DNA of 64,000 bases from Escherichia phage REP1. Made by a program: the position numbers and the translations under genes. Positions 5,306 through 51,824 of the stretch are shown here, piece after piece (position 1 is the first letter of the stretch; each line of letters begins with the position of its first letter). The notes under the pieces are model-generated. The model was given only the letters and a program-made list of their open reading frames with translations, made no database searches and was not told where the DNA came from. The stretch lies in sequence record OQ174500.1; one strand, written 5' to 3'.

Positions 5306-5521
5306 ATGTATAAATTTCGTAAAGGTTTAGCTGATTTTCTTACAACTGTAACGTTCTTTCTGTTTATGGCAGTTGGAGCTATTTTTCTTATTCCTTTTAT
5401 TGTTGTATTTTTCGTGATTAGTTTAATTTCTCCAGAAAAGGGCTTATCTTCTAGTGAGTTCAATGAGCGTCTGGATAAAATTACTAACAAGCTGAATGCG
5501 GTTCTTGATAAAAAGGATTAA
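5306..5521 (+). CDS. hypothetical small membrane protein
   Basis: 71 aa; hydrophobic segment FFLFMAVGAIFLIPFIVVFFVISLI; AAGGG Shine-Dalgarno. Confidence 0.5.
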   Translation: MYKFRKGLADFLTTVTFFLFMAVGAIFLIPFIVVFFVISLISPEKGLSSSEFNERLDKITNKLNAVLDKKD

Positions 5522-10756: not shown

Positions 10757-10782
10757 TATGCGGAGTTTGATATAATGATATT
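10750..10782 (+). promoter_or_regulatory. middle (MotA-dependent) promoter-like element
   Basis: GCTTTA Mot-box-like sequence, 12 nt, then TATAAT. Confidence 0.4.
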
Positions 10783-10911
10783 TCTTGGATATGTGATACT
10801 TTTTCTTGCATTTTATCTATTCACTAGAGCATGTTGGATTGGGTTCTTTAGCACTCCAGATGGATTTATTTCAATAATTTTATTTTGCATTTCAATGACG
10901 GTTCTTGATAT

Positions 10912-11535
10912 ATGAAAAAATATATAACTTATTTAACAATATATAGTGGAGATAAACTTCCTCCTTTTTATATTGGATCTACATCTTTAGATAGGCATTT
11001 AGCTGGATATCATGGATCAGTTTTATCTAAAAAGTATAAGAAAATTTATAATAAAGAACTTTCAGATAACCCGCATCTATTTGATTCATGCATTTTAGCT
11101 GAATTTGATACGCGTGAAGAAGCTATTAAATGCGAGCTATATTATCAACGATTGCATGATGCAGTTAAAAATCCATTATTCTTTAATATGTCATATGCTG
11201 CTCCAAAAGGTTCATTTGGAAGAGATATTAAAGGACAAAATCATCCATTATATGGTTCTCATAATTGTAAAGGAAATATACATTCACATGATCCATTAAC
11301 AGGAAAATCTGCATTTTTACCTTATATTCCAGAAGGTTATGTAAAAGGAAGGTCAAATAAATTTAAAGCTTCATCACATAATAAAGGTAAAAAATGGTAT
11401 AATAACGGAGTTAAGCAAATGTTATGTCATGAACCTCCTGGTCCTGAATGGACAAAAGGAAAAATTAAAGAACTGGTTTCAAAAGCAGCTAAATTAGGAT
11501 GGAAAAGACACCATGAAAATACTAAACTTGGGTGA
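10912..11535 (+). CDS. GIY-YIG family homing-endonuclease-like protein (seg-like)
   Basis: 207 aa; N-terminal TIY-(9 aa)-YIGSTS...R..H module consistent with GIY-YIG; 3' end overlaps gene 47 start by 23 nt. Confidence 0.6.
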   Translation: MKKYITYLTIYSGDKLPPFYIGSTSLDRHLAGYHGSVLSKKYKKIYNKELSDNPHLFDSCILAEFDTREEAIKCELYYQRLHDAVKNPLFFNMSYAAPKGSFGRDIKGQNHPLYGSHNCKGNIHSHDPLTGKSAFLPYIPEGYVKGRSNKFKASSHNKGKKWYNNGVKQMLCHEPPGPEWTKGKIKELVSKAAKLGWKRHHENTKLG

Positions 11536-18304: not shown

Positions 18305-21001
18305 ATGAAAGAATTTTATATCTCTATCGAAACAGTCGGAAATAACATTGTTGAACGTTATATTGATGAAAATGGAAAGGAACGTACTCGTGAAGTAGAA
18401 TATCTTCCAACTATGTTTAGACACTGTAAGGAAGAATCAAAATACAAAGACATTTACGGTAAAAACTGTGCTCCTCAAAAATTTCCATCAATGAAAGATG
18501 CCCGAGATTGGATGAAACGAATGGAAGACATCGGTCTCGAAGCTCTCGGTATGAACGATTTTAAACTCGCTTATATCAGTGATACATACGGTTCAGAAAT
18601 TGTTTATGACCGAAAATTTGTTCGTGTAGCTAACTGTGACATTGAGGTTACTGGTGATAAATTTCCTGACCCAATGAAAGCTGAATATGAAATTGATGCT
18701 ATCACTCATTACGATTCAATTGATGATCGTTTTTATGTTTTCGACCTTTTGAATTCAATGTATGGTTCAGTATCAAAATGGGATGCAAAGTTAGCTGCTA
18801 AGCTTGACTGTGAAGGTGGTGATGAAGTTCCTCAAGAAATTCTTGACCGAGTAATTTATATGCCATTCGATAATGAGCGTGATATGCTCATGGAATATAT
18901 CAATCTCTGGGAACAGAAACGACCTGCTATTTTTACTGGTTGGAATATTGAGGGGTTTGACGTTCCGTATATCATGAATCGCGTTAAAATGGTTCTCGGT
19001 GAACGTAGTATGAAACGCTTCTCTCCAATCGGTCGAGTAAAATCTAAACTAATTCAAAATATGTACGGTAGCAAAGAAATTTATTCTATTGATGGCGTAT
19101 CTATTCTTGATTATTTAGATTTGTACAAGAAATTCGCTTTTACTAATTTGCCGTCATTCTCTTTGGAATCAGTTGCTCAACATGAAACCAAAAAAGGTAA
19201 ATTACCATACGACGGTCCTATTAATAAACTTCGTGAGACTAATCATCAACGATACATTAGTTATAACATCATTGACGTAGAATCAGTTCAAGCAATTGAT
19301 AAAATTCGCGGGTTTATCGATCTAGTTTTAAGTATGTCTTATTACGCTAAAATGCCTTTTTCCGGTGTAATGAGTCCTATTAAAACTTGGGATGCTATTA
19401 TTTTTAACTCATTGAAAGGTGAACATAAGGTTATTCCTCAACAAGGTTCGCACGTTAAACAGAGTTTTCCGGGTGCATTCGTATTTGAACCTAAACCAAT
19501 TGCTCGTCGATATATTATGAGTTTTGACTTGACGTCTCTGTATCCGAGCATTATTCGTCAGGTTAACATTAGTCCTGAGACTATTCGTGGACAGTTTAAA
19601 GTTCATCCAATTCATGAATATATCGCAGGAACAGCTCCTAAACCGAGTGATGAATATTCTTGTTCTCCGAATGGATGGATGTATGATAAGCATCAAGAAG
19701 GTATCATTCCAAAGGAAATCGCTAAAGTATTTTTCCAGCGTAAAGATTGGAAAAAGAAAATGTTCGCTGAAGAAATGAATGCCGAAGCTATTAAAAAGAT
19801 TATTATGAAAGGCGCAGGGTCCTGTTCAACTAAACCAGAAGTTGAACGATATGTTAAGTTCAGTGATGATTTCTTAAATGAACTATCGAATTATACTGAA
19901 TCTGTTCTCAATAGTCTGATTGAGGAATGTGAAAAAGCGGCTACACTTGCTAATACAAATCAACTGAACCGTAAAATTCTCATTAACAGTCTTTATGGTG
20001 CTCTTGGTAATATTCATTTCCGTTACTATGATTTGCGAAATGCTACTGCTATCACAATTTTCGGCCAAGTTGGTATTCAGTGGATTGCTCGTAAAATTAA
20101 TGAATATCTGAATAAAGTATGCGGAACTAATGGTGAAGATTTCATCGCAGCAGGTGATACTGATTCGGTATATGTTTGTGTAGATAAAGTTATTGAAAAA
20201 GTTGGTCTTGACCGATTCAAAGAGCAGAACGATTTGGTTGAATTCATGAATCAGTTCGGTAAGAAAAAGATGGAACCTATGATTGATGTTGCATATCGTG
20301 AGTTATGTGATTATATGAATAACCGCGAGCATCTGATGCATATGGACCGTGAAGCTATTTCTTGTCCTCCACTTGGTTCAAAGGGCGTTGGCGGATTTTG
20401 GAAAGCGAAAAAGCGTTATGCTCTGAACGTTTATGATATGGAAGATAAGCGTTTTGCTGAACCACATCTAAAAATCATGGGTATGGAAACTCAGCAGAGT
20501 TCAACGCCTAAAGCGGTCCAAGAAGCTCTCGAAGAAAGTATTCGTCGTATTCTTCAGGAAGGTGAAGAGTCTGTCCAAGAATATTACAAAAACTTCGAGA
20601 AAGAATATCGTCAACTTGACTATAAAGTTATTGCTGAAGTAAAAACTGCGAACGATATAGCGAAATATGATGATAAAGGTTGGCCAGGATTTAAATGCCC
20701 GTTCCATATTCGTGGTGTGCTAACTTATCGTCGAGCTGTTAGTGGTCTGGGTGTAGCTCCAATTTTGGATGGAAATAAGGTAATGGTTCTTCCATTGCGT
20801 GAAGGAAATCCATTTGGTGACAAGTGCATTGCTTGGCCGTCGGGCACAGAACTTCCAAAAGAAATTCGTTCTGATGTACTGTCTTGGATTGACTACTCAA
20901 CTTTGTTCCAAAAATCGTTTGTTAAACCGCTTGCGGGTATGTGTGAATCGGCTGGTATGGACTATGAAGAAAAAGCTTCGTTAGACTTCCTGTTTGGCTG
21001 A
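18305..21001 (+). CDS. 43: DNA polymerase gp43 (family B)
   Basis: 898 aa; pol motifs DLTSLYPS and GDTDS; matches T4 gp43. Confidence 0.97.
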   Translation: MKEFYISIETVGNNIVERYIDENGKERTREVEYLPTMFRHCKEESKYKDIYGKNCAPQKFPSMKDARDWMKRMEDIGLEALGMNDFKLAYISDTYGSEIVYDRKFVRVANCDIEVTGDKFPDPMKAEYEIDAITHYDSIDDRFYVFDLLNSMYGSVSKWDAKLAAKLDCEGGDEVPQEILDRVIYMPFDNERDMLMEYINLWEQKRPAIFTGWNIEGFDVPYIMNRVKMVLGERSMKRFSPIGRVKSKLIQNMYGSKEIYSIDGVSILDYLDLYKKFAFTNLPSFSLESVAQHETKKGKLPYDGPINKLRETNHQRYISYNIIDVESVQAIDKIRGFIDLVLSMSYYAKMPFSGVMSPIKTWDAIIFNSLKGEHKVIPQQGSHVKQSFPGAFVFEPKPIARRYIMSFDLTSLYPSIIRQVNISPETIRGQFKVHPIHEYIAGTAPKPSDEYSCSPNGWMYDKHQEGIIPKEIAKVFFQRKDWKKKMFAEEMNAEAIKKIIMKGAGSCSTKPEVERYVKFSDDFLNELSNYTESVLNSLIEECEKAATLANTNQLNRKILINSLYGALGNIHFRYYDLRNATAITIFGQVGIQWIARKINEYLNKVCGTNGEDFIAAGDTDSVYVCVDKVIEKVGLDRFKEQNDLVEFMNQFGKKKMEPMIDVAYRELCDYMNNREHLMHMDREAISCPPLGSKGVGGFWKAKKRYALNVYDMEDKRFAEPHLKIMGMETQQSSTPKAVQEALEESIRRILQEGEESVQEYYKNFEKEYRQLDYKVIAEVKTANDIAKYDDKGWPGFKCPFHIRGVLTYRRAVSGLGVAPILDGNKVMVLPLREGNPFGDKCIAWPSGTELPKEIRSDVLSWIDYSTLFQKSFVKPLAGMCESAGMDYEEKASLDFLFG

Positions 21002-21013
21002 TAGAATAAATCT

Positions 21014-21036
21014 AGGGACCTCCGGGTCCCTTTTTC
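21014..21036 (+). terminator. rho-independent terminator AGGGACCTCCGGGTCCCT + TTTTT
   Basis: 8-bp GC stem + T run after gene 43. Confidence 0.7.
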
Positions 21037-21099
21037 ATACAAGTAATATAAATCTATACTTATGAAAAACAGATGATTCTGGACCTTTAGAATTCCCTA

Positions 21100-21150
21100 A
21101 AAAATTTTTCACAAAACTGTTTACAAGACTGTTCCTCTGTGGTACTATAC
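21100..21150 (+). promoter_or_regulatory. T4-type early promoter (GTTTAC -35, TACTAT -10)
   Basis: aaaaatttttcacaaaactGTTTACaagactgttcctctgtggTACTAT. Confidence 0.6.
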
Positions 21151-21182: not shown

Positions 21183-21419
21183 ATGAAAATTGTTTATGGT
21201 TGCTTAGCAGTGTGTTTAGTTGCATTAGCAGCAGTTCCATTTGTTAGTGTTGAAAATGATACTCAACCTGTGATTGAATCTAGCACCGTTATTCACACTA
21301 ATGGTAAAATATCAGTTAAAATTGATGATAATCTTCATGTGAATACAAATGGATCTTTAGGTGTGCAAATGGGTAATACCTGCATAAGCACTACTGGAGT
21401 AATTACTACTTGCATTTGA
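21183..21419 (+). CDS. hypothetical secreted/membrane protein
   Basis: 78 aa from ATG; N-terminal hydrophobic signal-like segment. Confidence 0.5.
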   Translation: MKIVYGCLAVCLVALAAVPFVSVENDTQPVIESSTVIHTNGKISVKIDDNLHVNTNGSLGVQMGNTCISTTGVITTCI

Positions 21420-21429
21420 GGAAATTATT

Positions 21430-21810
21430 ATGAAAATCGCTATTTTGGTTATTGCATTAGGTCTTACTGGTTGTGTAGCTCAAGGACCGGTAGTAAATCA
21501 GTCTGATGTAGGAAAAATTGTAAACTGTTCAAGCAAATTTTATAATCCTAATGTCAAGTGTTATAAAGAAGCTCCAAAACAGACAGTAGAACAAATGCAG
21601 GCGAATTTTGACGAAGCTATTCGTCCAGATGAATCTGCTCAAGCATATCGTAATTCGGATGTAATTACACGCGAAGAAAAAATTGAAAACTACTGCGCCG
21701 AGCTTTGGGCTAATTGGGCTAATAATTACCAATGGCGTACTGGTAAAAATGCTCCGATGGAGTATGTAGTGAATTCTTATAATTCATGTGTAAAAAATTT
21801 GACTAAGTGA
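21430..21810 (+). CDS. putative lipoprotein
   Basis: 126 aa; signal peptide with lipobox LTGC. Confidence 0.5.
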   Translation: MKIAILVIALGLTGCVAQGPVVNQSDVGKIVNCSSKFYNPNVKCYKEAPKQTVEQMQANFDEAIRPDESAQAYRNSDVITREEKIENYCAELWANWANNYQWRTGKNAPMEYVVNSYNSCVKNLTK

Positions 21811-21817
21811 GGAAAAC

Positions 21818-22069
21818 ATGGAAACTTTAGTAGCAGGTTCAATTTTTATGGTTTTAGTTTCAGGCGTGTTGGCTATTATTATATACATGCTTCCATGGTT
21901 TATCGCCTTGATGCGTGGGTCAAAATCGACAGTAGGAATCTTTTTCACATCTTTACTGTTTAACTGGTCAATTATTGGTTGGTTTATTACATTTATTTGG
22001 TCAATTGCGGGTGAAACTAAAAAGTCTGCACAGCCAAATCAGGTAATTATCATCAGAGAGAAGGAATGA
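21818..22069 (+). CDS. imm: Imm-like membrane protein (superinfection immunity), by size and position
   Basis: 83 aa, two hydrophobic helices; just upstream of gene 42. Confidence 0.5.
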   Translation: METLVAGSIFMVLVSGVLAIIIYMLPWFIALMRGSKSTVGIFFTSLLFNWSIIGWFITFIWSIAGETKKSAQPNQVIIIREKE

Positions 22070-22215
22070 AAAGCAAAATTATAACAGTGTTGCTTTTAAT
22101 CTTGATGATTATAATAAGTATATACTATAGTGTAACGGTTCCTCTTATGATTCCAACTATTATTTTAGGTTGGGGTTTATTACTGTTACAAGTTAAATAT
22201 GAATGTATCAATTGA
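22066..22215 (+). CDS. hypothetical small membrane protein
   Basis: 49 aa hydrophobic ORF; ATGA overlap with upstream stop; not in ORF track (<60 aa). Confidence 0.35.
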   Translation: MKSKIITVLLLILMIIISIYYSVTVPLMIPTIILGWGLLLLQVKYECIN

Positions 22216-22222
22216 GGTTTAA

Positions 22223-22963
22223 ATGATTAGTGACTCTATGACAGTTGAAGAAATCCGTCTTCATTTGGGGCTTGCATTAAAAGAAAAAGATTTCGTAGTT
22301 GATAAAACTGGTGTTAAAACTATTGAAATTATTGGCGCATCATTTGTAGCAGATGAACCGTTTATTTTTGGCGCTCTTAATGATGAATACATTCAGCGTG
22401 AACTTGAATGGTATAAATCTAAAAGCTTGTTTGTTAAAGATATTCCAGGTGAAACACCAAAGATTTGGCAGCAGGTAGCATCTTCTAAAGGCGAAATTAA
22501 CTCGAATTATGGTTGGGCTATTTGGTCAGAAGATAACTATGCCCAGTATGATATGTGTTTAGCTGAACTTGGTCAAAATCCTGATTCTCGACGTGGTATC
22601 ATGATTTATACTCGTCCATCCATGCAATTTGATTACAATAAAGATGGTATGTCAGATTTCATGTGTACTAATACAGTACAGTACCTGATTCGTGATAAGA
22701 AAGTCAATGCAGTAGTAAGCATGCGCTCAAATGATGTGGTCTTCGGATTCCGTAATGATTATGCATGGCAAAAATACGTATTAGATAAATTAGTATCTGA
22801 TTTGAATGCCGGCGATTCAACTCGTCAGTATAAAGCAGGTTCTATTATATGGAATGTTGGAAGTCTTCATGTATATTCTCGTCATTTTTACTTGGTTGAT
22901 CATTGGTGGAATACTGGCGAAACTCATATTGTGAAAAAAGATTATAACGGTGAGTGGAAATGA
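22223..22963 (+). CDS. 42: dCMP hydroxymethylase
   Basis: 246 aa; matches T4 gp42. Confidence 0.95.
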   Translation: MISDSMTVEEIRLHLGLALKEKDFVVDKTGVKTIEIIGASFVADEPFIFGALNDEYIQRELEWYKSKSLFVKDIPGETPKIWQQVASSKGEINSNYGWAIWSEDNYAQYDMCLAELGQNPDSRRGIMIYTRPSMQFDYNKDGMSDFMCTNTVQYLIRDKKVNAVVSMRSNDVVFGFRNDYAWQKYVLDKLVSDLNAGDSTRQYKAGSIIWNVGSLHVYSRHFYLVDHWWNTGETHIVKKDYNGEWK

Positions 22964-23802
22964 TTCAATTCGTAATTCCAAGCTATCAACGCGTAGGGGC
23001 AGTTTCTGCCCTTGATATGTTTCCGACTGATTATGAACCACATATTGTAGTGCGTGAACATGAAGAAAAAGCTTATCATGACGCTTATGGGTCTAGAGTT
23101 AAAATTATAACTATTCCTGATGATGTAAACGGAATTGCCGGTACTCGTAAAGCAATTACTGATATGTATGCAGGTCAACGAATCTGGATGATTGACGATG
23201 ATACTACTATTCGTATGAGTTCAATGCGAAAAAGAGATGATCGTCGTTGCGTAGATAAAGTCAATCAATTGACTCGTGAACAGTTCTATGAATTGATTCA
23301 ATATGTTGAGGATGCCATGGATTGTGGGTATTATCATGGCCATGCTCGTCTACCTATTTTTAAAATTACTTCATCTTGGGGTAATTATCGTGAAAATTCA
23401 TATGGATTCACGAATACATGGTATGACCTCGGAAAACTTACGACAGAACAAATTGGGTATGGAAAAATTGATTTATGCGAAGATATGTATGCATTTCTCA
23501 ATTTAATTAATCAAGGTTATCCGCATTTGGCCTTGTTCAAATATCTGGTTGTATCTGGAAAAGCACAAGCTCCTGGCGGGTGCAGTTCAATTCGCAGTAA
23601 TTCTAAACATAATAGAGCGCTTGAGCAGATCAATAGAGAGTTTCCAGAGCAAGCTCGTTGGAAAACTTCTAATATTGAAAAACGAAAATCGTTGGGTGAA
23701 GAAGACGAGCCATTAAAGGTTCTTCGTATGTGTGTTTCACGTAAAGAAAAATCAGAAGCATTTCATAAGTTTAATGCTATTCATCCAATAGCAGTTGATT
23801 AA
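22960..23802 (+). CDS. putative glycosyltransferase with DXD motif (candidate beta-glucosyl-HMC alpha-glucosyltransferase), occupying the beta-gt position
   Basis: 280 aa; MIDDDTTI DXD motif; not similar to T4 beta-gt as I recall it. Confidence 0.5.
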   Translation: MIQFVIPSYQRVGAVSALDMFPTDYEPHIVVREHEEKAYHDAYGSRVKIITIPDDVNGIAGTRKAITDMYAGQRIWMIDDDTTIRMSSMRKRDDRRCVDKVNQLTREQFYELIQYVEDAMDCGYYHGHARLPIFKITSSWGNYRENSYGFTNTWYDLGKLTTEQIGYGKIDLCEDMYAFLNLINQGYPHLALFKYLVVSGKAQAPGGCSSIRSNSKHNRALEQINREFPEQARWKTSNIEKRKSLGEEDEPLKVLRMCVSRKEKSEAFHKFNAIHPIAVD

Positions 23803-27395: not shown

Positions 27396-27689
27396 ATGAA
27401 AAAATTTATTTTTGCTACAATTTTTACTTTGGCTTCTTGTGCTGCTCAGCCTTCTATGGCAGGATATGATAAAGATTTGTGTGAATGGTCTATGACTGCA
27501 GATCAGACTGAAGTTGAAACTCAAATTGAAGCGGATATTATGAATATCGTTGAGCGCGATCGTCCTGAAATGAAAGCTGAAGTGCAAAAACAACTTAAGT
27601 CTGGTGGTGTAATGCAGTATAATTATGTTCTGTATTGCGATAAAAACTTTAATAACAAAAATATCGTAACCGAAATCACAGGCGAATAA
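27396..27689 (+). CDS. sp: spackle periplasmic protein Sp
   Basis: 97 aa; N-terminal signal peptide MKKFIFATIFTLASCAAQPSMA; length and position match T4 sp. Confidence 0.75.
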   Translation: MKKFIFATIFTLASCAAQPSMAGYDKDLCEWSMTADQTEVETQIEADIMNIVERDRPEMKAEVQKQLKSGGVMQYNYVLYCDKNFNNKNIVTEITGE

Positions 27690-41831: not shown

Positions 41832-42092
41832 ATGAAATATGTTAATCGTTCTATCGCAGCATTAGTATTAGCAGTATCTTTAGTAGGATGTACTGATGCT
41901 GATAATGCAACTAAAATTTTATCATCAAGTGGTTTTACTAATATTGAAATCACTGGATATAACTGGTTCGGTTGCTCTGAAAATGATTTCCAACATACTG
42001 GATTTCGTGCTATTGGACCTACCGGGCAGAAAGTAGAAGGAACAGTATGTTCTGGGCTGTTCTTTAAGGATTCAACTATTCGTTTTAAATAA
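41832..42092 (+). CDS. putative lipoprotein
   Basis: 86 aa; signal peptide with lipobox LVGC. Confidence 0.5.
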   Translation: MKYVNRSIAALVLAVSLVGCTDADNATKILSSSGFTNIEITGYNWFGCSENDFQHTGFRAIGPTGQKVEGTVCSGLFFKDSTIRFK

Positions 42093-50056: not shown

Positions 50057-50212
50057 ATGAATATTGCAAAATTATTAGGAGTTATTTCATTTATTTGTTG
50101 GATAGTAGCATGTGTTTTAACTATCTGTATTGATGCCAGCAGTGTGTTTTCGCAGGCTTTAGCCCAAGGTATGTGTGCATATTTAACATTTGTGTTGTTA
50201 TCTAATGATTAA
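50057..50212 (+). CDS. ac: Ac-like small membrane protein (acridine sensitivity)
   Basis: 51 aa hydrophobic; GAGGAAAA RBS; position between stp and 52. Confidence 0.55.
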   Translation: MNIAKLLGVISFICWIVACVLTICIDASSVFSQALAQGMCAYLTFVLLSND

Positions 50213-50345
50213 GAAAATCTTGGGCTATTCATTAGCCCTTGCTATTTTATTGATAGCGTTATATTACGGAATAATGTTCGGATTAATTCAAGTCGTGCTT
50301 TTCATTTCTGATGTTATTATGGCACTACATTCACTAGTATGGTAA
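50205..50345 (+). CDS. hypothetical small membrane peptide (52.1-like)
   Basis: 46 aa hydrophobic; overlaps ac stop. Confidence 0.35.
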   Translation: MIKKILGYSLALAILLIALYYGIMFGLIQVVLFISDVIMALHSLVW

Positions 50346-50349
50346 ATTT

Positions 50350-51678
50350 ATGCAACTGAATAATCGCGATTTAAAAAGTATCATTGATAATGAAGCATTG
50401 GCTTATGCTATGTACACGGTTGAAAATCGTGCTATCCCAAATATGATTGACGGATTTAAGCCAGTTCAACGATTTGTTATTGCTCGAGCTCTTGATTTGG
50501 CACGAGGAAATAAAGATAAGTTTCACAAACTCGCTTCTATTGCAGGTGGTGTAGCGGACCTTGGATATCATCATGGTGAAAACTCCGCACAAGACGCAGG
50601 CGCTTTGATGGCTAATACTTGGAATAATAACTTTCCTCTGTTAGATGGTCAAGGAAACTTTGGTTCTCGTACCGTTCAAAAGGCAGCTGCGAGTCGTTAT
50701 ATTTTTGCTCGTGTAAGTAAAAATTTCTATAGCGTATATAAAGATACTGAATATGCTCCGGTACATCAAGATAAAGAACACATTCCGCCTGCTTTTTATT
50801 TGCCTATTATTCCTACTGTTCTTCTTAATGGTGTTTCCGGTATTGCAACTGGTTATGCAACTTACATTCTTCCTCATAGCGTTTCTTCTGTCAAGAAAGC
50901 TGTACTGCAAGCTCTTCAAGGAAAGAAAGTAACTAAACCGAAGGTTGAATTCCCAGAATTTCGTGGTGAAGTCGTTGAAATTGACGGTCAATATGAAATT
51001 CGTGGAACATACAAGTTTACTTCACGAACTCAAATGAATATCACTGAGATTCCGTATAAGTATGATCGTGAAACTTATGTGAGTAAAATCTTAGACCCAC
51101 TTGAAGATAAAGGCTTCATTACATGGGATGATGCTTGTGGTGAGCACGGCTTCGGCTTTAAAGTTAAATTCCGTAAAGAATATTCTTTGAGCGATAACGA
51201 AGAAGAACGCCATGCAAAAATTATGAAAGACTTCGGGTTGATTGAGCGTCGTTCTCAGAATATTACCGTCATTAATGAGAAAGGAAAGCTACAAGTTTAC
51301 GATAACGTAGTTGATTTAATTAAAGATTTCGTTGAAGTTCGTAAAACTTATGTCCAAAAACGAATTGATAACAAAATTAAAGAAACTGAGTCAGCTTTTC
51401 GTTTAGTCTTTGCCAAGGCGCATTTCATTAAGAAAGTAATTTCAGGTGAAATTGTTGTACAAGGTAAAACTCGTAAAGAACTGACCGAAGAACTTTCTAA
51501 AATTGATATGTATTCTTCTTATGTTGATAAACTAGTTGGTATGAACATTTTTCATATGACTTCCGACGAAGCAAAGAAACTTGCTGAAGAAGCTAAAGCT
51601 AAAAAAGAAGAAAACGAATATTGGAAAACTACTGATGTAGTTACAGAATACACTAAAGATTTAGAGGAAATCAAATGA
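50350..51678 (+). CDS. 52: DNA topoisomerase II medium subunit gp52 (GyrA-like)
   Basis: 442 aa; N-terminal AYAMYTVENRAIP...KPVQR motif; matches T4 gp52. Confidence 0.93.
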   Translation: MQLNNRDLKSIIDNEALAYAMYTVENRAIPNMIDGFKPVQRFVIARALDLARGNKDKFHKLASIAGGVADLGYHHGENSAQDAGALMANTWNNNFPLLDGQGNFGSRTVQKAAASRYIFARVSKNFYSVYKDTEYAPVHQDKEHIPPAFYLPIIPTVLLNGVSGIATGYATYILPHSVSSVKKAVLQALQGKKVTKPKVEFPEFRGEVVEIDGQYEIRGTYKFTSRTQMNITEIPYKYDRETYVSKILDPLEDKGFITWDDACGEHGFGFKVKFRKEYSLSDNEEERHAKIMKDFGLIERRSQNITVINEKGKLQVYDNVVDLIKDFVEVRKTYVQKRIDNKIKETESAFRLVFAKAHFIKKVISGEIVVQGKTRKELTEELSKIDMYSSYVDKLVGMNIFHMTSDEAKKLAEEAKAKKEENEYWKTTDVVTEYTKDLEEIK

Positions 51679-51824
51679 GTCCATTCATTGGTATCACAAG
51701 CGCTGCATTAGTATCTGGTAGCATTTTACTGGCGGGTTTAGGTGTTGTTCTAGCCGTAGCAGGAGGTCTTCTTGCATTCGGAATTCAACGTGTTATCATG
51801 ACAGTTATCACAGTCATGCAGTAA
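51675..51824 (+). CDS. hypothetical small membrane peptide
   Basis: 49 aa hydrophobic; ATGA overlap with gene 52 stop. Confidence 0.35.
   Translation: MSPFIGITSAALVSGSILLAGLGVVLAVAGGLLAFGIQRVIMTVITVMQ

Follow-up and report, generated by a model that had tools for sequence, protein, structure and literature searches.

Superinfection exclusion by bacteriophage T4 is a classic system, although a mechanism for its Imm protein was proposed only in 2026. T4 Imm is an inner-membrane protein. According to that proposal, it blocks genome translocation by binding to a helical-bundle domain in gp29, the tape measure protein of the incoming phage, and Imm expressed from a plasmid is sufficient on its own to exclude T4 (preprint, bioRxiv 10.64898/2026.03.06.709160). 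The second protein of the system, Spackle (Sp), inhibits the gp5 lysozyme (PMC7677548). Far less has been written about imm.1, the gene immediately upstream of imm: a comparative paper of 2018 merely speculates that Imm.1 takes part in exclusion (PMC5885020), and no functional study of imm.1 or of its domain family, DUF5481, was found in the literature searched.

The locus described here lies in a 64,000-nt stretch of the genome of Escherichia phage REP1 (OQ174500.1), hereafter the window, which is a Tequatrovirus (T4-like) genome; 514 phage records match a 1.3-kb stretch of the locus, with 495 covering at least 80% of the region and 435 being at least 95% identical. Four open reading frames (ORFs) are packed tightly at 21183-22215 on the plus strand, flanked by gp43 upstream and gp42 downstream (Table 1), and an earlier note on this DNA had placed the cluster between these two genes at exactly this range. 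The imm.1-imm region of T4 (NC_000866, 26227-27013) has the same order of gene 43, promoter, imm.1, imm, a 49-aa ORF and gene 42, and the shared DNA is ~97-98% identical to the window. T4 differs in being without the 247-nt cassette that carries the first ORF, ORF78, and in a 1-nt insertion, as a result of which Imm.1 is one residue shorter and imm gains an ATG upstream and in frame, giving a 94-aa Imm. Of the four ORFs only ORF78 is lacking from T4; the lipoprotein, Imm and ORF49 are all present in T4 DNA. The locus is the T4 imm.1-imm region with a variable cargo gene added, and a further gene in it lacks annotation in the T4 reference; each of its genes has a database family, carries annotation in numerous genomes and is found in hundreds of sequenced phages. 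Taken as a whole, the explanation of this stretch as an early transcription unit around imm, common to T-even phages (Tequatrovirus), is given a probability of about 0.8; the part played by Imm.1 is graded separately below.

Table 1. Features of the imm region and its surroundings in the window.
Feature	Position	Strand	Source
Gene 43 (DNA polymerase, gp43, 898 aa)	18305-21001	+	
Intrinsic terminator 3' of gene 43: stem-loop AGGGACC-TCCG-GGTCCCT (21014-21031), then TTTTT	21014-21036	+	terminator scan
Invariant TAATATAAAT	21044-21053	+	invariant columns, six-lineage alignment
Early-type sigma-70 promoter (predicted): TTTACA (21120-21125), 17 nt, TACTAT (21143-21148), TG 5' of the -10 hexamer	21120-21148	+	promoter scan
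ORF78, 78 aa, predicted secreted, PHROG 4189	21183-21419	+	
imm.1 ortholog, 126-aa predicted lipoprotein, Pfam DUF5481, PHROG 1754	21430-21810	+	
imm, 83-aa superinfection immunity inner-membrane protein, PF14373, PHROG 1039	21818-22069	+	
ORF49 (gp42.1 in RB14), 49-aa two-segment hydrophobic hairpin peptide, PHROG 3610	22066-22215	+	
Gene 42 (dCMP hydroxymethylase, gp42)	22223-22963	+	
spackle	27396-27689		

The gene 43 terminator hairpin, a TATAAAT motif and the early promoter are all kept in an alignment of six lineages, in which GTTTACA and TACTATA of the promoter are invariant and divergence begins just 3' of it. The invariant TAATATAAAT resembles the T4 late-promoter core TATAAATA at seven of eight bases and may be a late promoter. 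The predicted early promoter probably drives the whole four-ORF cluster. A Shine-Dalgarno motif can be read before each of the four ORFs, which are separated by gaps of 7-10 nt or, in the case of imm and ORF49, joined by an ATGA overlap in which the ORF49 start codon overlaps the imm stop codon; with this arrangement the genes are probably co-transcribed and partly translationally coupled, and we infer that the four ORFs form one early operon. The unit would thus run from the gene 43 terminator through the conserved early promoter to a variable slot, occupied here by ORF78, and on through imm.1, imm and 42.1 to gene 42. No paralogs of any of the four proteins were found by tblastn within the window.

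A strongly hydrophobic segment opens each of the four ORFs. Of the 109 non-overlapping ORFs in the window, 11 reach the threshold used for such an N-terminus, and the four cluster ORFs are consecutive and carry the four highest scores (2.7-3.3), a run that by our own arithmetic would arise by chance with a probability of ~0.006; the export and membrane signals that the earlier note had assigned to all four are thus borne out. In ORF78 the one hydrophobic segment is N-terminal (MKIVYGCLAVCLVALAA), and residues 14-16 form an A-L-A site in keeping with the -3/-1 rule of signal peptidase I. The window allele of ORF78 has no canonical lipobox, its two nearest approaches, VYGC (Cys7, too near the N-terminus) and LAVC (Val at -1), being off-pattern. 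The N-terminus of Imm.1, MKIAILVIALGLTGC, does contain the lipobox named in the earlier note, a canonical L-T-G-C with Cys15 and with Val at +2; it matches a PROSITE PS51257-like pattern as well as the definition applied here, in which an n-region of positive charge and a hydrophobic h-region precede [LVI][ASTVI][GAS]C. Imm contains two long hydrophobic stretches, and ORF49 consists largely of two 17-residue hydrophobic segments linked by VTVP. All calls of cleavage and lipidation in this article are rule-based predictions from the sequence.

The identification of the 83-aa ORF as Imm-like proved correct. It matches Pfam PF14373 (Imm_superinfect) over residues 22-63 with 58.2 bits (cut-off 27.9; E = 7.7e-16) and PHROG 1039, 'immunity to superinfection', at 3.6e-32, sits between imm.1 and gene 42, and is identical to T4 Imm at 82 of 83 residues, the exception being T54 here against A54 in T4. 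Pairwise dN/dS values for imm among five Tequatrovirus genomes are 0-0.09. Because of this near-identity to the T4 protein, the Imm of the window would be expected to exclude superinfecting T-even phages through binding of gp29.

Imm.1 is a member of a very small family. It matches Pfam DUF5481 (PF17578) with 239.2 bits (cut-off 27; 5.4e-72), residues 22-124 covering profile positions 1-103 of 103, and differs from the 125-aa T4 protein NP_049661, encoded at the same position, by one residue and by one extra residue at the C-terminus. Pairwise dN/dS among the five Tequatrovirus genomes is 0-0.17, indicating strong purifying selection. Searched exhaustively with HMMER, a set of 1.84 billion representative proteins yielded only six clusters; in the phage collection the gene is present in 501 Tequatrovirus records at 95% identity or more and in 155 Mosigvirus records at ~33%. 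The lipobox cysteine is kept in four of five Imm.1 lineages and is replaced in the fifth by a signal of the signal peptidase I type, AHA|S, so that periplasmic location, and not the lipid anchor, is the common denominator of the family. In the family alignment YNP..K.Y, YR.S, Cys89 and Cys120 are invariant, and the mature part of the protein has four cysteines. An AF2 model built from a six-sequence alignment (mean pLDDT 63.7) is confident only for a C-terminal helical hairpin, residues 81-125, in whose two helices Cys89 and Cys120 fall, and is poor for residues 1-80. Foldseek against the PDB gave no fold match at E <= 0.001, a profile search of PDB sequences gave no meaningful match, and the PADLOC and NCBIfam libraries returned only noise; given the poor model and the lack of a PDB match, no particular target of Imm.1 is indicated.

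Several other identities for Imm.1 can be set aside. The product name 'iduronate sulfatase' carried by T4 imm.1 in RefSeq is spurious, no sulfatase signal having been obtained from the libraries. A spanin pair is contradicted by the neighbouring gene, since the 83-aa Imm is almost wholly membrane-embedded and without a periplasmic domain, and there were no spanin family matches in Pfam or PHROG. T4 Spackle is, like Imm.1, a small early exported protein with cysteines, and its gene lies ~5 kb downstream of the cluster, but the two share no homology beyond the signal peptide, hhalign aligning only the signal peptides (residues 1-19). The Spackle signal peptide also holds a lipobox-like LASC, yet Spackle is described as a soluble periplasmic protein, with signal peptidase I cutting at a more distal site, a precedent that calls for caution over the predicted lipidation of Imm.1.

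Circumstantial evidence on the role of Imm.1 comes from its genetic linkage. In all five lineages with a readable context (the Tequatrovirus window, Mosigvirus PhAPEC2, and the metagenomic lineages L017, L019 and L020) imm.1 lies immediately 5' of a PF14373 imm gene, and the pairing persists across divergence to 32-46% identity. The order is 43, imm.1, imm, 42.1, 42 in L017, 43, imm.1, imm, 42 in L019, and 43, a frd.3-like gene, imm.1, imm, 42.1 in L020; the distant Imm.1 homologs P0018, P0019 and P0021 are absent from the cultured-phage collection, and their contexts come from metagenome contigs only. Mosigvirus (RB69-like; PhAPEC2, NC_024794) resembles the window in having an Imm.1 homolog with an LTGC lipobox (33-36% identity) directly 5' of Imm (65%), and differs in that the pair is not found between genes 43 and 42, having been relocated to a position beside spackle in the order dmd, imm.1, imm, sp, and in having neither ORF78 nor a 42.1 homolog. 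This adjacency supports, short of proof, an envelope role for Imm.1 alongside Imm, and such circumstantial evidence modestly strengthens the suggestion of a lipoprotein that acts in exclusion or on the envelope. It could also be that the adjacency reflects only a shared early timing and a shared targeting to the membrane.

ORF78 is the sole gene of the cluster that is truly absent from T4, whose DNA aligns without exactly positions 21183-21429. On both sides of the cassette stands an 18-nt direct repeat, at a spacing of 247 nt, which takes in the ribosome-binding site and start codon and includes ATGAAAAT. The encoded protein has a signal-like N-terminal helix and a beta-rich C-terminal part with Cys67 and Cys77 (mean model pLDDT 52.8), and its homologs form 14 clusters confined to Tequatrovirus or unnamed assemblies. 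The slot that it fills behind the promoter is occupied by ORF78 in 320 of ~514 Tequatrovirus records, by the unrelated 83-aa RB51ORF048, which lacks a signal peptide, in T2 and 30 other records, and by a Frd.3-like gene in L020; it is empty in T4, L017 and L019, and in CT01 it holds a decayed remnant of ORF78 fused upstream of imm.1. Since the state of the slot varies and the homologs are so confined, ORF78 is strain-variable cargo outside the conserved module and one of several alternative slot genes. The direct repeat fits either direction of change, a gain of ORF78 or its loss in T4. The empty slot of the distant L017 and L019 is of approximately the same length as that of T4, which favours gain within Tequatrovirus, and the CT01 remnant indicates that loss occurs too. 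Over the same five genomes ORF78 has a dN/dS of 0.14-0.36 at a dS of 0.3-0.46, evolving faster than its cluster neighbours Imm.1 and Imm, and the C-terminus of gp43 has a value of ~0. The relatives examined keep its frame open, and its signal-peptide region grows by in-frame 21-nt duplications, one of which creates a LAAC lipobox in HY01-type alleles. ORF78 can thus be described as a small, faster-evolving, predicted exported protein.

The fourth ORF, ORF49, matches PHROG 3610 over its full length (5e-26), is annotated as 42.1 in RB14 (NC_012638), and carries the precomputed family PF26865.1 on all nine of its homolog clusters. T4 has an intact copy (L001, 6228-6377, minus strand) with three amino acid differences, which is unannotated in the T4 RefSeq record. 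In three lineages (Tequatrovirus, L017 and L020) the gene comes directly after imm; an ATGA overlap joins its start to the stop codon of imm in the window and in L017, and in L020 it starts within the 3' end of imm. Its homologs share an invariant MIP motif and a C-terminal LQ.K.EC.N; in L017 the product keeps 59% identity while Imm is just 38% identical, and in L020 identity is 63%. No gp42.1 homolog is found in Mosigvirus or L019, so the protein is dispensable for Imm. A literature search for ribosome profiling of small T4 ORFs gave nothing relevant.

Two explanations concern the genes themselves. The earlier note counted the lipoprotein as additional to T4 imm.1 and imm, which would make it a newly acquired exclusion factor, a claim that had rested on counting four ORFs against two annotated T4 genes and for which nothing is left after checking: T4 imm.1 is co-positioned and aligns with the window gene almost base for base, and the DUF5481 match and the hundreds of near-identical phage copies described above point the same way. 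The claim is wrong, the 126-aa lipoprotein being the ortholog of T4 imm.1 and not an extra gene, and as an explanation of the locus it can be given practically no weight. The earlier note had named a T4 ortholog of known unrelated function as what would count against the idea; an ortholog does exist, and the literature searched gave no function for it. It could also be supposed that ORF78 or ORF49, or both, are no more than chance reading frames of the AT-rich DNA between genes, or that they matter solely in coupling translation into imm.1 and gene 42. Both are short, ORF49 lacks annotation in the T4 reference, and ORF78 is missing from ~40% of relatives and is modelled with low confidence. 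The dN/dS of ORF78, its intact frame and its in-frame expansions nevertheless speak against this, as do the intact ORF49 in nine of nine Tequatrovirus genomes read, for which dN/dS is ~0.2-0.4 from few sites (five-genome pairwise comparison), its conservation in two distant metagenomic lineages, and the Shine-Dalgarno sequences and PHROG families of both. Such an origin is very improbable; on the strength of selection and of conservation in distant lineages both small ORFs are real genes, and gp42.1 is a real, conserved micro-protein with two predicted membrane segments.

With regard to function, it is suggested tentatively, at rather less than even odds, that Imm.1 is a periplasmic accessory to Imm, works at the same entry step and is probably anchored in the outer membrane. 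Imm.1 would be exported and lipid-anchored at Cys15 and, having Val and not Asp at +2, would under the E. coli Lol rule probably be sorted to the periplasmic face of the outer membrane, where its disulfide-stabilised helical domain may act at the same step as Imm and Spackle, the target being either the tail tip or tape measure of the superinfecting phage or the envelope site crossed by the tail. It would then be an accessory of Imm, not an independent system, and gp42.1, made together with Imm, may modulate Imm in the inner membrane. A counterpoint is that plasmid-expressed Imm alone excludes T4, and Imm.1 is therefore not required. The same sufficiency of Imm agrees with the proposal that Imm.1, gp42.1 and ORF78 are unconnected with exclusion and are early envelope proteins (with roles such as the timing or inhibition of lysis, stabilisation of the envelope or effects on host physiology) clustered by shared early expression and membrane insertion, and it is also the case that the literature searched gave no function for any of the three and that the slot 5' of imm.1 takes unrelated cargo, even cytoplasmic proteins, making position weak functional evidence. 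This proposal is unlikely but deserves to be taken seriously; it fits poorly with an imm.1-imm pair that stays intact across such deep divergence and, after relocation, has landed beside spackle. A different role would be to mask or inactivate a receptor or porin of the host as an independent outer-membrane lipoprotein, in the way that T5 Llp and Cor act on FhuA, excluding other phages or preventing progeny from adsorbing to debris. Imm.1 resembles Llp and Cor of phi80 and N15 in being a small, predicted early, predicted outer-membrane phage lipoprotein, and its very high conservation within the genus would suit a conserved host target. The likeness is one of functional analogy only, with no sequence or fold match to these lipoproteins in Pfam (E up to 1, where DUF5481 alone was recovered and no receptor-blocking family), PADLOC, NCBIfam, Foldseek or PDB sequences. 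Unlike Llp and Cor, Imm.1 is invariably encoded beside an inner-membrane Imm, a strict adjacency that receptor masking leaves unexplained, and the lineage in which a predicted soluble periplasmic form has replaced the lipidated one is a poor fit with outer-membrane anchoring; receptor masking is accordingly considered improbable.

A bolder version of the accessory reading would make imm.1, imm and 42.1 a conserved three-layer module for blocking entry, in which outer-membrane-anchored Imm.1 engages the tail tip, the tape measure or the envelope site crossed, and ORF78 serves as a strain-specific tuner of exclusion specificity; this extension is doubtful and is offered as speculation. As a discovery the region is ordinary and the stakes are modest. 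Its immediate yield is a set of annotation corrections, namely that gp42.1 is missing from the T4 reference, that the 'iduronate sulfatase' name of imm.1 should not be relied on, and that, of the nine Tequatrovirus genomes read, T4 alone has the 94-aa start of Imm. Should Imm.1 and gp42.1 indeed take part in exclusion, the two-protein picture of Imm and Spackle would be incomplete, and plasmid assays that use imm only would underestimate or mis-specify exclusion. If the three-layer module were true, Imm.1 would be an unrecognised third T4 exclusion protein beside Imm and Spackle.

The variable stretch directly 3' of the conserved early promoter, extending to imm.1, is occupied by ORF78 in the window and is empty in T4. 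In phage T2 and 30 other records it carries RB51ORF048, an 83-aa protein lacking a signal peptide, and in a metagenomic relative (L020) it carries a Frd.3-like 70-aa protein; these are unrelated genes, and the slot is a small gene-exchange hotspot. In Shigella phage CT01 the slot has been rearranged independently: the promoter-proximal leader recurs behind a mid-ORF78 remnant that is fused in frame to imm.1, which accounts for annotated ORFs of 101 aa and 179 aa.

ORF78 itself varies in its signal peptide. The phage HY01 allele contains a perfect 21-nt tandem duplication at a TTAGCAG repeat with 21 nt spacing, which adds CLVALAA to the hydrophobic core and creates a canonical LAAC lipobox, while two other alleles (P0005 and P0012) carry different 7-aa expansions. 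The N-terminus of the 97-aa Spackle ortholog (MKKFIFATIFTLASC) contains a lipobox-like LASC within a signal peptide described as being of the signal peptidase I type, a warning for predictions resting on a lipobox alone. Strongly hydrophobic N-termini are found in six more small ORFs (46-86 aa) of the window, two of which overlap one another at 50205-50212.

RefSeq calls T4 imm.1 (NP_049661) and a number of its orthologs 'iduronate sulfatase', a label that appears to be an artefact of annotation, since Pfam, NCBIfam, and PHROG scans found no sulfatase signal. Because of a 1-nt insertion at the imm.1/imm junction (TTTGACCTAAG versus TTTGACTAAG in the window), T4 Imm.1 ends after 125 aa and an ATG farther upstream comes into frame, giving a 94-aa Imm, the form used for cryo-EM in a 2026 preprint (bioRxiv 10.64898/2026.03.06.709160). 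In the window and the seven other Tequatrovirus genomes examined, Imm.1 is 126 aa and a stop codon closes this extension, which supports the 83-aa start of Imm. T4 carries an intact copy of the 49-aa gene 42.1, which its RefSeq record leaves unannotated although RB14 and many other records do annotate it.

Coordinates of the features discussed (L-numbers denote comparison regions)
Feature	Window	Other genome	Strand
ORF78 duplication, HY01	21204-21231	L003 1471-1728	
Slot, T2		L009 1237-1488	
Slot, metagenomic relative		L020 450-662	
Slot rearrangement, CT01		L006 1224-2061	
Spackle ortholog	27396-27689		
Small ORFs, hydrophobic N-termini	50057-50212, 50205-50345, 51675-51824, 10775-10915, 41832-42092, 5306-5521		+
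imm.1, T4		L001 6637-7014	
imm.1/imm junction	21795-21830	L001 6374-6658	(-) on L001
42.1, T4	22066-22215 (counterpart)	L001 6228-6377; about NC_000866.4 26227-26376	(-) on L001
TAATATAAAT	21044-21053		
Glucosyltransferase gene	22954-23802		

Downstream of the gene 43 terminator, ahead of the early promoter, sits TAATATAAAT, invariant across six lineages whose surrounding sequence has diverged. Its resemblance to the T4 late-promoter core, TATAAATA, raises the possibility that late transcription of the cluster occurs as well.

Immediately after gene 42, the window encodes a T2/T6-type beta-glucosyl-HMC-alpha-glucosyltransferase (PHROG 842, 2.4e-89; Pfam TAGT) and, unlike T4, the phage lacks beta-gt and segA. 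This gene content indicates that its DNA is glucosylated in the manner of T2 and T6 rather than that of T4.
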